DNA of 64,000 nt, taken from IMG/VR virus record IMGVR_UViG_2651869782_000025; one strand, 5' to 3'. Position numbers and translations under genes: made by a program. The stretch's first letter is position 1, and every line of letters starts with the position of its first letter. This document shows positions 24,219-27,824 of this stretch, in pieces. The notes under the pieces were generated by a model, which was not told the DNA's origin, searched no databases, and was given only the letters and a program-made list of their open reading frames with translations. Source of the DNA: a virus (lineage: Duplodnaviria; Heunggongvirae; Uroviricota; Caudoviricetes).

Positions 24219-25589
24219 GTGTTAATGTCTGCATCCCCTCTTGAATCCATGCCAAATTCCCTTAGTGCAGAACAAGCTGTGCTTGGTGGCTTAATGCTTG
24301 ATAACTGCCGCTGGGATGAAGTTGCAGATCGTATAGTTGCTGATGATTTTTATACCAGTGCTCATCGTGAAATTTTCAGTGAGATGGAGAGGTTATTAAG
24401 TCATGGCAAACCGATTGATTTGATAACACTTGCTGAAGCACTTGAACAGAACGGTAAATTAGAACGCGCCGGTGGTTTTGCGTACCTTGCGGAGATGTCA
24501 AAGAACACGCCCAGCGCGGCAAATATTTGTGCTTATGCGGATATCGTTCGTGAACGCGCGGTTGTTCGTGAAATGATTTCCGTCGCAAATGAAATAGCCG
24601 AAGCTGGATATGCGCAGGATGGCAGGGGCAGCAATGAATTGCTGGATATGGCCGAGCGCCGCGTTTTTGAAATAGCTGAAAAACGACAAAAGAGCGGTAG
24701 TGGTCCAAAAGATATCGCCAGCATTCTCGATGCAACGGTATCTCGCATAGAAGAGTTGTTTCAGCGACCGCATGATGGTGTAACGGGGATTGATACCGGA
24801 TTTACCGATCTCAATAAGAAGACGGCAGGACTTCAGCCGTCCGATCTCATCATTGTCGCCGCCCGCCCATCTATGGGGAAGACCACGTTTGCGATGAATC
24901 TCGTCGAAAATGCCGCAGTTCGTAACGATAAGCCCGTATTGGTTTTTAGCCTTGAGATGCCGAGCCACCAGCTGATGATGCGCTCACTTGCTTCTCTTGC
25001 ACGCGTTGATCAGACTCGTATTAGAACGGGGCAACTTAACGACGATGATTGGGCGCGGGTTTCTGGCGCAATGGGTATTCTGTTGGACAAGCAGAATATT
25101 TTTATTGATGACTCAAGCGCCCTGACGCCGACAGAGCTACGTTCCCGCGCTCGTCGTGTTTATAAAGAAAATGGTGGTTTGAGCATGATTATGATCGACT
25201 ACCTGCAACTTATACGCGTCCCCGAGCTGCAAGATAACCGAACGCTGGAAATTGCCGAGATTTCTCGCTCACTGAAGGCTTTGGCGAAGGAATTACAAGT
25301 ACCGGTGGTGGCATTGTCACAACTTAATCGATCGCTTGAACAGCGTGCGGACAAACGACCGGTAAATTCAGACTTACGTGAATCAGGAGCAATTGAGCAG
25401 GACGCAGACCTGATCATGTTTCTGTATCGCGACGAAGTTTATCACCCGGATAGCGAAATGAAGGGCATTGCCGAAGTAATTATCGGAAAGCAACGAAATG
25501 GCCCAATTGGCACGGTGAGATTGGCTTTTAACGGCCAATACTCACGGTTTGATAACTATGCCGGTGCTGACTGGCAAGAGGATTATTAA
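24219..25589 (+). CDS. ban: Replicative DNA helicase, DnaB family (P1 Ban)
   Basis: 456 aa; N-terminal DnaB signature (SAEQAVLGGLMLDN), Walker A (ARPSMGKTTFAMN), RecA-like fold motifs. Confidence 0.9.
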   Translation: MLMSASPLESMPNSLSAEQAVLGGLMLDNCRWDEVADRIVADDFYTSAHREIFSEMERLLSHGKPIDLITLAEALEQNGKLERAGGFAYLAEMSKNTPSAANICAYADIVRERAVVREMISVANEIAEAGYAQDGRGSNELLDMAERRVFEIAEKRQKSGSGPKDIASILDATVSRIEELFQRPHDGVTGIDTGFTDLNKKTAGLQPSDLIIVAARPSMGKTTFAMNLVENAAVRNDKPVLVFSLEMPSHQLMMRSLASLARVDQTRIRTGQLNDDDWARVSGAMGILLDKQNIFIDDSSALTPTELRSRARRVYKENGGLSMIMIDYLQLIRVPELQDNRTLEIAEISRSLKALAKELQVPVVALSQLNRSLEQRADKRPVNSDLRESGAIEQDADLIMFLYRDEVYHPDSEMKGIAEVIIGKQRNGPIGTVRLAFNGQYSRFDNYAGADWQEDY

Positions 25590-26599
25590 TGCAATGGAAT
25601 GAGGAAAAGCCGATGAACATCCTGATCATTGGGCGAAAATTTGAAGCTATCAGTGATGTGAGAACATATACGGAAATGTGGGCTTACAACCTGGCCTGCG
25701 CCTTTAGTGAGGCTGGGGTAACATTGCAATACCATCGTCCATATTCTCCCGGCGTCGAAAGCCCGGAGGATTATGTTGAAGCTGTGTTGACCGCTGCGAC
25801 CTCGTGTTCAGCGAAAGCAATTTTAGCGCCTGGATTGCGGTATTTTACTACGGTGCCCAGGGAAATAGGTGTGCAACTGCGTCGTCGATTCACTGGATGG
25901 GTAGCTCAGGTATACGACGGTTCTATGCTGGATTCGGCACCAGTTGATATTACTTTTACTGTCCGCGATGATACCTGGCGGTACCTGGATAATCCCGGCA
26001 GGTTAGAGCGTCATAATCGCTTTAACAAACATGTTGGATGGGCAGCGAATCAGGATCTGTTCCATCTGGAAACCAAAACAGACGATGTTCTGCGTATTTT
26101 TGTAGACCACGCTGCATTTGATGTTAGTGGGTTTGATCACTCCTTAAGTATCATTATGAACCTTCAGCGTCTGACCGTTCCGTATGAGGCCAGAACGTTG
26201 ACCGATGACGGATTGGTTACCATTGATCCGGGGAATATTTCGGTAACTCCATACAGACGGACGCCGGTACCAGCAACCGAATTTGCAGCTGAATTGCGTA
26301 AGAGCGACGTTTTTATCGTTACGCATCCCGAAAGCCTTGGATTAACTGTTCTTGAGGCGGCAATGTGTGGGGCGTTGATATTAACGCCGCCCGATTGCCT
26401 TCCGCCAGATCGCCTGGCTTTGGTCAACCATATGGTTATCAAGTCGCGGATTGATTGGGATGAGGTTATTGCTCGCGTTGATCGCGTGAAAAATGCTGAA
26501 AAGGTCCAGTGTCACACCTGGTCTGCGATCGCAGAGAAGATGATTGAGACGTTTACGACAGCAAAACTGCCGTACGTAACTGCATCAAATTCAAATTAA
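25589..26599 (+). CDS. Putative GT-B-fold glycosyltransferase-like protein
   Basis: C-terminal ESLGLTVLEAAMCGALIL resembles the GT1/GT4 donor-binding motif; likely start at the internal MNILIIGRK. Confidence 0.4.
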   Translation: MQWNEEKPMNILIIGRKFEAISDVRTYTEMWAYNLACAFSEAGVTLQYHRPYSPGVESPEDYVEAVLTAATSCSAKAILAPGLRYFTTVPREIGVQLRRRFTGWVAQVYDGSMLDSAPVDITFTVRDDTWRYLDNPGRLERHNRFNKHVGWAANQDLFHLETKTDDVLRIFVDHAAFDVSGFDHSLSIIMNLQRLTVPYEARTLTDDGLVTIDPGNISVTPYRRTPVPATEFAAELRKSDVFIVTHPESLGLTVLEAAMCGALILTPPDCLPPDRLALVNHMVIKSRIDWDEVIARVDRVKNAEKVQCHTWSAIAEKMIETFTTAKLPYVTASNSN

Positions 26600-26660
26600 A
26601 ATAATTGGGGAATATGTCGTTTTTTTGAAAAATACAACATGACATAAACCCCAATTTTCC

Positions 26661-27824
26661 TTAGATTCTAAATAATTTTCTTAATCGTATTCCGATAAGA
26701 CTTCCGCATAAAGCCATCAACATCCAAAGCCATCCATGCACACTCCCCGATGCTGTCCCATCAAAAAAACCGCCTAAATTACATGCTGCATACGCGCCGC
26801 CGCATCCCATCAATAACCCACCAATAATTCCTGCAAGAGTATTTTGAATGGTTATTGGAGTTCTGTTTCTCTCCCTGAGCAGACATGCAGAAAATGCCGC
26901 TCCCAGCAACCCTGCGGCAAACATGCCTACCATTGGATTGAGGAATAGAGGTTTTGCTAGTTTTGGATTACCATCGAAGAAACCAAAAAAAGAAGAAATA
27001 TGTAAAGCACTTTCGTAGATAGCGCCAGTGATAGTCCATGCAGAACCATGTATGGCAACAATACTTGAGTTCAGTATTGCGATTATAATTCCACCGCTAA
27101 GAACAGTAAAATGACTATTTTTCCAGAATAAACTTCCAGATGTAAAAATACTTGTTAGTTGTCCTGTTTTTTTTCTCTCAATATGACAAAAGAAGATATA
27201 GAGCAGTCCAACGAAGAGTAAATTTACCAACATACCAGTCCATAGATTCCCTGTTAAATCTTTAACGGTTACTATATGGCCAGGAAATATTGATGATAAT
27301 TCATGTTTAAACGAGTTGCCTATTAAAGTTCCAATGCCATAGAAAAGTAGAACAATCCAAAATCTTGGCCTCCCTTCACCACAACAATAAAGTGTTCCAG
27401 ATGCACAACATCCTGCCAACTGCATTCCTATGCCAAATAAAAAAGCACCAGCGATGAAAGGTATGCTGATTGCCATAATATTGCCTGTCATCTTATCTCC
27501 AAATAAGGAGTGGCTGAAAGATAAGCAAATAGTGAACAATAGTATTTCGATCGCAATAGTTAGCAAATGGATTCGTACATAGTAACTATTTTTTTGTGTT
27601 AACATCTCTCTCCAGCCAAAAACAATACCGAAGCGGCTGAATGAAAGTGTAAAGCCTAACCCAAAACCGATAATACTCATTACCACCCATTTTGTCCCGA
27701 AAGTATTTCCAAGCCATGAAAATAAAACCAAGGCAATTAATACTATTGGGAACAGAAGCTTCTGTTGCATATAGTTATTTCCCACGACAAAAAATCGCGA
27801 GATTATACCGTTCGCTTTTGCCAT
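26661..27824 (-). CDS. YeeE/YedE-like polytopic inner-membrane protein (sulfur-transport-domain family)
   Basis: 387 aa, many TM helices, Cys-containing motifs (AGCCASG, CCGEG); strongly AT-rich compared with neighbours. Confidence 0.45.
   Translation of the reverse strand: MAKANGIISRFFVVGNNYMQQKLLFPIVLIALVLFSWLGNTFGTKWVVMSIIGFGLGFTLSFSRFGIVFGWREMLTQKNSYYVRIHLLTIAIEILLFTICLSFSHSLFGDKMTGNIMAISIPFIAGAFLFGIGMQLAGCCASGTLYCCGEGRPRFWIVLLFYGIGTLIGNSFKHELSSIFPGHIVTVKDLTGNLWTGMLVNLLFVGLLYIFFCHIERKKTGQLTSIFTSGSLFWKNSHFTVLSGGIIIAILNSSIVAIHGSAWTITGAIYESALHISSFFGFFDGNPKLAKPLFLNPMVGMFAAGLLGAAFSACLLRERNRTPITIQNTLAGIIGGLLMGCGGAYAACNLGGFFDGTASGSVHGWLWMLMALCGSLIGIRLRKLFRI

Follow-up and report, generated by a model that had tools for sequence, protein, structure and literature searches.

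The P1-like phage-plasmid in IMG/VR record IMGVR_UViG_2651869782_000025 (64,000 nucleotides were analysed, hereafter the window) carries a horizontally acquired gene of the yeeE/yedE family, located between dbn and gene 5 and predicted to encode a polytopic inner-membrane transporter. The gene lies alone, as a self-contained unit, in a foreign AT-rich segment that separates two transcription units of the phage, which is the classic layout of a phage moron. We favour, with modest confidence, the explanation that it is a lysogenic-conversion moron, whose product would let a small solute that contains sulfur pass two central cysteines and cross the lysogen's inner membrane. The neighbouring gene dbn is an ordinary P1 gene and is unrelated to the transporter gene. 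The original prediction for this region, made from the sequence alone, reported two open reading frames (ORFs) at 25589-27824 and a drop of the guanine plus cytosine (GC) content in the membrane-protein gene, and both observations were confirmed (38.5% GC against 47% in the window). The features of the insert and its border, with lengths in amino acids (aa), are the following.

26553..27925, no strand: foreign AT-rich segment, 1373 bp, 37.6% GC, delimited by alignment with P1
26603..26656, no strand: imperfect inverted repeat with 21-nt arms, putative terminator from the insert, directly after the stop codon of the yeeE-like ORF
26661..27824, minus strand: yeeE-like ORF, 387 aa counted from the first ATG
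26661..27770, minus strand: predicted yeeE/yedE-family (PF04143) polytopic inner-membrane transporter, Aeromonas-type orphan subfamily, 369 aa
27771..27824, minus strand: in-frame upstream extension of the yeeE-like ORF, not reached by any homologue
27802..27831, minus strand: sigma-70 promoter-like site TTGTTA-18 nt-TATAAT, 10/12 consensus matches
27929..27955, no strand: P1 bidirectional terminator hairpin (AGAAAAGCCCG / CGGGCTTTTCT), part of the P1 backbone, between gene 5 and the insert

The yeeE-like ORF is considered a real gene because it matches PF04143 (Sulf_transp) far above the cut-off, with E = 4e-39 and 135.4 bits against a cut-off of 27, over profile positions 2-309 of 310. The protein corresponds to WP_052893098.1, annotated in E. 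coli. The search against PHROGs gave only a weak match to phrog_19116, a family without assigned function. In the PDB sequence search, the YeeE/TsuA entries of Spirochaeta thermophila were the only matches (E about 1e-14). The AlphaFold model (predicted local distance difference test, pLDDT, 79; predicted template modelling score, pTM, 0.82) has 6LEO, 6LEP, 8J4C and 8K1R as its only significant fold matches in the PDB (E about 2e-9, TM 0.65-0.75, 22-24% identity). In this model the transporter has the YeeE hourglass fold, which consists of nine transmembrane helices and four re-entrant loops. The earlier description of the gene product as a YeeE/YedE-like membrane protein (PF04143, COG2391) is thus supported by the Pfam match and the fold.

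The product is most likely a protein of 369 aa starting at 27770, and not of 387 aa, because all aligned homologues (17/17) begin at the second in-frame ATG, the first ATG (27824) is a GTG in the other P1-borne allele (loci L004 and L002), and a conserved TATAAT is located between the two candidate ATGs, with a conserved Shine-Dalgarno-like motif, GGAAAT, at the second. The interval 27771..27824 probably comprises the promoter -10 element and the 5′ untranslated region rather than coding sequence.

The foreign segment replaces about 50 bp of P1, corresponding to the 3′ end of dbn and a short spacer before the dbn/gene 5 terminator. The ends of the segment showed no direct or inverted repeats, no target-site duplication and no attC site. 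An insertion sequence, a transposon or an integron cassette was considered and rejected, since terminal repeats are missing and the event was a replacement rather than a clean insertion. The hairpin after the transporter gene has a predicted RNA folding energy of -19.9 kcal/mol (z = -3.1) and is kept in L004 and L002. The sigma-70 promoter-like site is the best-scoring site of its kind in the region, and its -10 element is kept in all P1-borne copies. On the gene 5 side, the P1 terminator hairpin, with 100% complementary arms, is common to P1. The yeeE-like ORF is poorer in GC than ban (48.1%), dbn (48.2%) and gene 5 (51.8%), and only 2.3% of the same-sized windows in the 64 kb are as GC-poor (z = -2.5). 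The search with Rfam revealed no riboswitch or leader upstream of the transporter gene in the window and in 10 homologous loci, where only tRNAs and one chance match were obtained.

The insert is classified as a moron because it possesses its own promoter-like site and hairpin, has a deviant GC content, is absent from close relatives of the phage, and leaves the P1 terminator in place. Similar to phage morons in the lambdoid sense, and to the cargo of P1-like phage-plasmids, it consists of a single gene with promoter-like and terminator-like signals of its own and a deviant GC content, at a site where alternative cargo is found. The usual cargo of morons is a toxin, exclusion, defence or antibiotic-resistance gene, whereas here it is a transporter of a sulfur-related family.

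Base composition and distribution point to a foreign origin of the transporter gene, which was acquired horizontally. The closest relatives outside P1-like elements share 84% amino-acid and 79% nucleotide identity, and are found beside a carboxylesterase gene on Escherichia contigs that resemble IS-rich plasmids of the Rep3 type. The next tier (60-69% identity) consists of genes from the chromosomal core of virtually all Aeromonas species, which have the native GC content of 62%, and of scattered occurrences in Citrobacter sp. JGM124, Photobacterium carnosum, and metagenome-assembled genomes of Vibrio and Shewanella. A further tier, with 31-36% identity, comprises proteins of about 400 aa from Pseudomonas, the Halomonas group and Bacillaceae. 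The Aeromonas proteins annotated as YeeE/YedE family protein (A. veronii, A. salmonicida, A. dhakensis) resemble the phage-borne protein over the full length (64-69% identity), with the same 369-aa architecture and the same invariant residues, and their gene also stands alone, without a TusA-like neighbour. However, the Aeromonas gene is chromosomal and has 62% GC, in comparison to 38% in the phage copy. The direct donor would therefore be a different, low-GC organism, and no such donor was found among the relatives searched. Among the approximately 33%-identical relatives of Pseudomonas, Shouchella and Halomonas, the sole suggestive link was found in Pseudomonas, where the gene adjoins a cluster of the sulfur-scavenging type, including an acyl-CoA-dehydrogenase-like protein, a luciferase-like monooxygenase and a methionine ATP-binding cassette transporter.

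The transporter possesses the two central pathway cysteines of characterised members of the family. C122 and C330, which do not vary among 18 clade members, correspond to C91/C293 of S. thermophila YeeE and C94/C302 of E. coli TsuA. Of the three conserved cysteines of S. thermophila YeeE, C91 and C293 are indispensable and C22 is dispensable (PMC7449682, PMC11582611), while C25 of E. coli TsuA, the equivalent of S. thermophila C22, is essential (PMC7449682). The thiosulfate transporter TsuA/YeeE (E. coli b2013; S. thermophila PDB 6LEO, 8J4C) and the transporter of the window belong to the same Pfam family, and have the same fold and the same order of the two internal repeats. They share 24-26% sequence identity (26% to E. 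coli TsuA) and the motifs GxCA(S/T)G and CN(L/I)G. In contrast to TsuA/YeeE, the transporter clade lacks the loop-A cysteine (S. thermophila C22, E. coli C25), and no arginine was seen at the position expected from the alignment for the conserved loop-C arginine. Additional elements of the transporter are a predicted N-terminal hydrophobic helix at residues 3-23 and a clade-invariant cysteine, C130, within a YCCGEG motif. In E. coli, tsuA adjoins tsuB, and TsuB/YeeD is required for TsuA-mediated uptake (PMC11582611), whereas the transporter gene has no adjacent TsuB/YeeD.

According to the explanation that we favour, the transporter gene was acquired horizontally as self-contained cargo at the dbn/gene 5 hotspot. 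In the plasmid prophage state, a sigma-70 promoter of its own would drive its transcription without control by the C1 repressor; expression in the lysogen is suggested by the promoter-like site and by a scan of the window in which no C1 operator came within 5 kb of the insert. The product would then conduct thiosulfate-like or other sulfane-sulfur/chalcogen species through the inner membrane, and the altered sulfur supply of the lysogen would constitute lysogenic conversion. A sulfur-containing solute is proposed because the characterised full-length relatives, TsuA of E. coli and S. aureus and SoxT1A, are importers of sulfur compounds, and because of the sulfur-scavenging neighbourhood in Pseudomonas. 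By analogy with these relatives we infer both the substrate and the direction of transport.

Several results weigh against this explanation. The position of the loop-A cysteine is occupied by an invariant glycine (G48) in the transporter clade. The NCBIfam models of TsuA score far under their cut-offs (NF052577, 63.7 against 400 bits; NF041049, 34.6 against 645 bits), as does the YedE/FdhT model NF033796 (71 against 350 bits). No TusA-like partner (TsuB/YedF) was found beside the gene in the window or in loci L004, L005, L006, L090 and L103, and at the loci of the approximately 33%-identical relatives of Pseudomonas, Shouchella and Halomonas no TusA-like neighbour was found either. By sequence, the protein thus belongs to a partner-less subfamily that is neither TsuA nor YedE and has no characterised member. 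The Aeromonas neighbourhoods gave no functional hint; at high GC, grouping the flanking ORFs into clusters was a noisy procedure, and no conserved functional partner emerged. The promoter and the terminator are consensus-level matches only. One copy, in the E. fergusonii plasmid pTB91P2 (L003, 6001-7320), is apparently interrupted, with residues 1-261 recovered in one piece by tblastn and no coding sequence annotated. Lastly, the transporter gene is rare among P1-like elements, and therefore any benefit to the host would be conditional.

The same protein, in the same moron, could have another role, either with another chalcogen (selenium, as for YedE, or selenite/tellurite) or in the export or detoxification of reactive sulfur species, which we regard as unlikely. 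The YedE/FdhT selenium model gives the best NCBIfam score of the transporter, the loop-C motif G-S-A-W-T-I-T-G-A is closer to F-W-A-V-T-G-E of E. coli YedE than to TsuA, and the loop-A cysteine of TsuA is missing. The putative selenium transporter YedE/FdhT (E. coli b1929, with YedF) belongs to the same Pfam family and resembles the transporter in the W-x-[IV]-T-G loop and the motif C-N-L-[GA]-x-F-F-x-G. In addition, short members of the YeeE family carry zero-valent sulfur (PMC11582611). Nevertheless, the best score is far below the YedE cut-off, and the halves of the transporter are in the TsuA-like order and not in the permuted order of YedE. E. coli YedE is matched only as two permuted halves, the C-terminal half of the query aligning to YedE's N-terminal half. 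YedE has its partner YedF, whereas neither a YedF-like partner nor a selenium-utilisation gene is present near the transporter gene, and for detoxification there is no direct evidence of export within the YeeE family. A more specific proposal, which we offer only tentatively and consider doubtful, is that the P1-borne gene and its Aeromonas relatives form a partner-independent YeeE branch, in which C130 would replace the loop-A cysteine in the relay. Lysogens of Escherichia in the gut would then gain from the phage-plasmid a new way to take up thiosulfate, sulfane sulfur or selenium.

The transporter gene is carried at one site by a small Escherichia sublineage, as two alleles. None of the 18 P1-like phage records (P1, P7, SJ46 and RCS47 among them) and none of 5,426 complete E. 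coli genomes contained the segment. The P1-type junction is uninterrupted in 442 of the 471 PLSDB records that include the dbn/gene 5 region, and two records, both P1-like plasmids of E. fergusonii, have the transporter gene at the same site. Outside PLSDB, the gene was found at this site in a Logan contig and an IMG/VR contig. The search with tblastn against 50,697 phage records revealed no real counterpart; the weak partial matches (27-37% identity over a third to half of the protein) are located in the ends of Stx-phage records, in Staphylococcus records and in one fecal contig. A literature search found no link of YeeE to P1-like elements. The comparison with other P1-like genomes, which the original prediction had put forward for both genes, thus gave opposite results, with dbn conserved and the transporter gene rare.

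The allele of the window is also present, with 100% identity, on a truncated IMG/VR contig. The commoner allele (L002, L003, L004, L007 and L087) has index entries in about 60 blocks of the assembly collection, and all six of the contexts displayed (6/6) show the P1 context and the same site. The two alleles share 92.5% nucleotide identity across the insert and have identical junctions, and their flanking backbone is 97-99% identical. Between the alleles, synonymous divergence (dS) is 0.30 and non-synonymous divergence (dN) 0.023 (dN/dS 0.074), in comparison to a dS of 0.03-0.09 in genes 5 and 6. The low ratio indicates strong purifying selection. The reading frame of the transporter is intact in the window, L002, L004, L007 and L087. 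The simplest reading would be that a single old insertion has been kept by purifying selection, and that recombination between P1-like elements has homogenised the backbone. An independent acquisition of the two alleles is unlikely, since both share the same junctions.

These data also bear on the possibility that the gene is a passenger without a role for phage or host, either in transit or in decay. This is consistent with its presence in 2/471 P1-like plasmid records, with the apparently truncated copy in pTB91P2, and with the rearrangement of locus L007 by other mobile DNA. Nonetheless, it appears improbable in view of the low dN/dS between two alleles that are well separated in dS and have common junctions, the intact reading frames together with the roughly 60 index blocks and the P1 context in the six shown, and the conservation of the -10 element and of the Shine-Dalgarno-like motif. 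In locus L007 (1-3903, Escherichia sp. MOD1-EC7003), the transporter gene has been cut out of its P1 context and the -35 side of the promoter is replaced. On the 3′ side only a 3′ remnant of dbn is present; beyond it lie a toxin-antitoxin pair resembling PemI/PemK and ORFs resembling transposases, both identified by eye from the ORF translations.

The dbn/gene 5 junction is a cargo hotspot, because another cassette, of two genes, occupies it in 17 further P1-like plasmids, for instance E. albertii p2RM15116 (L104, 6338-7399) and E. coli pNT1F10-94k (L105, 4815-5967). The genes of this cassette encode proteins of 233 aa and 100 or 130 aa in the orientation of gene 5, without Pfam matches and with marginal PADLOC matches. 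Among the P1-like elements with the transporter gene, an additional ORF of 100 aa is present between ban and dbn in L004 (10154-10456), L097 and probably L087; this ORF is absent from the window and P1.

The membrane protein could alternatively act in a conflict between phages, or between phage and host, by superinfection exclusion, abortive infection or a block of DNA entry. Exclusion and defence functions are frequent among the morons of temperate phages, alternative cargo occupies the dbn/gene 5 site in other P1-like plasmids, and other cargo of the defence type (a type I restriction-modification system and a SIR2-like protein) is present in the window. We consider such a role very improbable, as neither Dbn nor the transporter matches PADLOC-DB at E <= 0.01, and the transporter is a full-length, conserved member of a transporter family, with the pathway cysteines conserved and with its closest relatives being a core, housekeeping-type chromosomal gene of Aeromonas in non-defence neighbourhoods. 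Among the candidates listed in the original prediction, namely superinfection exclusion, envelope modification, and a defence or accessory module, an accessory gene is what was found, while exclusion and defence remain without a PADLOC match, and a module with dbn is not supported.

The genes flanking the insert belong to the P1 backbone.

24219..25589, plus strand: ban (DnaB-like replicative helicase), context gene, in one operon with dbn and upstream of it
25589..26599, plus strand: dbn ('downstream of ban'), 336 aa, GT-B/GT4-like putative retaining glycosyltransferase
27955..28587, minus strand: gene 5 (baseplate protein), context gene, right flank of the insertion site

The gene at 25589-26599 is dbn, a standard conserved P1 gene and part of the already-known P1 biology. 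Dbn of the window shares 95% identity with P1 Dbn over residues 1-326, matches phrog_2518 at 1e-232, and has the conserved position after ban, with the dbn ATG overlapping the ban stop codon as in P1. The gene is annotated in the P1 reference record as 'function unknown, possible glycosyltransferase', is named glt in P7, and is annotated as glycosyltransferase family 4 protein in RCS47. The suggestion that neither gene has a standard P1 function therefore does not apply to dbn, which is a P1 gene present in the 442/471 plasmid records mentioned above, and does apply to the AT-rich transporter gene.

Dbn is likely a putative retaining glycosyltransferase (GT) of the GT-B/GT4 type, with a predicted fold of two Rossmann domains. 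The AlphaFold model, based on an alignment of 18 family members, has a pLDDT of 87, and Foldseek matched it with probability 1.00 to the GT-B/GT4 enzymes MshA, GlgM, sucrose-phosphate synthase, PimB' and BshA. The E-x7-E motif (E248, E256) is invariant across the family. The original prediction of a GT-B-like neighbour is borne out by the fold matches and this motif; in the profile searches it had proposed, the clear result for PF04143 contrasts with a weak one for GT families (PF00534, GT4: 23.8 bits against a gathering cut-off of 26.4, E = 3.7e-5). The family is small, with 22 clusters, mostly from P1-like or related elements. In a genome-wide CRISPR interference screen, dbn was non-essential in P1 (PMC10695390), and the gene is dispensable for lytic growth. 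The literature search on dbn function revealed nothing beyond this non-essentiality, and no glycosyl-transfer experiments.

At the insert boundary, the last approximately ten residues of Dbn are swapped for 13 new ones, because the insert begins within the last codons of dbn. The sole difference of the window Dbn from P1 Dbn and P7 Glt is C-terminal, with the tail TTAKLPYVTASNSN instead of ITQKPSRGNG. The C-terminal tail is variable throughout the family.

It is extremely improbable that dbn and the transporter gene form an envelope-modification module, for instance one that transfers sugar to a lipid carrier together with a membrane partner, comparable to the O-antigen glucosylation (Gtr) cassettes of phages: the two genes are adjacent, one glycosyltransferase-like and the other polytopic, and the original prediction had paired them, but the distribution contradicts this, with dbn present without the transporter gene in more than 440 P1-like plasmids and transporter homologues (Aeromonas, Citrobacter, other plasmids) never accompanied by a dbn-like neighbour, the genes are convergent (61 bp between the stop codons) with separate signals, the transporter fold is that of YeeE and not of a flippase or GtrA/GtrC, and Dbn is of the soluble GT4 type and not of the GT2 GtrB type.

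The window as a whole is a P1-like phage-plasmid. The region 24000-29000 has 96-98% identity to P1, P7, SJ46, RCS47 and other P1-like phages, with the exception of one block that makes up 27% of this query, and the region 15000-38000 matches hundreds of P1-like plasmids. The ban gene shares 98.8% nucleotide identity with P1 ban and its product matches PF03796 (1e-107) and PF00772, while gene 5 shares 96.8% nucleotide identity with P1 gene 5 and has a weak match to PF04717. Upstream of ban, four tRNA genes are present at 22190-23944, namely Asn-GTT, Thr-TGT, Ser-TGA (22819-22905) and Met/Ile2-CAT. The C1-operator consensus ATTGCTCTAATAAATTT with up to three mismatches was found at 15 sites in the window, in comparison to 0.3 expected by chance. 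Two of these sites overlap, at 21507-21534; they lie some 650 bp upstream of the tRNA genes and hence upstream of the tRNA-tciA-ban-dbn region.

Other cargo was detected elsewhere in the window. A complete type I restriction-modification system is encoded at 38812-44815 (minus strand), with HsdR (1038 aa), HsdS (401 aa) and HsdM (520 aa). This system occupies the place of the type III EcoP1I res/mod genes of P1, and its hsdS part forms an island with a low GC content of about 38%. Within the window, GC is lowest (33.5%) in an island at 56119-58271 (plus strand), which lies a short distance downstream of a gene for a ref-like RecA-dependent nuclease (55516-56076) and is probably defence cargo. 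This island encodes a 262-aa ORF without Pfam or PADLOC matches, followed by a 435-aa SIR2_2-domain protein that matches the PDC-S25, ThsA and LmuA models of PADLOC. A DsbA-like thioredoxin-fold protein of 213 aa is encoded at 60702-61343 (minus strand).

P1-like phage-plasmids have been surveyed mainly for antibiotic-resistance and defence cargo, and here the cargo is a metabolic transporter gene at a defined hotspot, under purifying selection. The insert is an ordinary moron with an unusual payload, and its main interest is biochemical, namely the solute of a partner-less YeeE homologue with two plus one cysteines. If thiosulfate or a related compound is indeed imported without a TusA-like partner, this would widen the knowledge of the YeeE family, of which the characterised full-length members (TsuA of E. 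coli and S. aureus) use a TusA-like partner. It would also offer a simple example in which a phage alters the sulfur nutrition of its enteric host, a form of phage-mediated conversion not described for P1-like elements.

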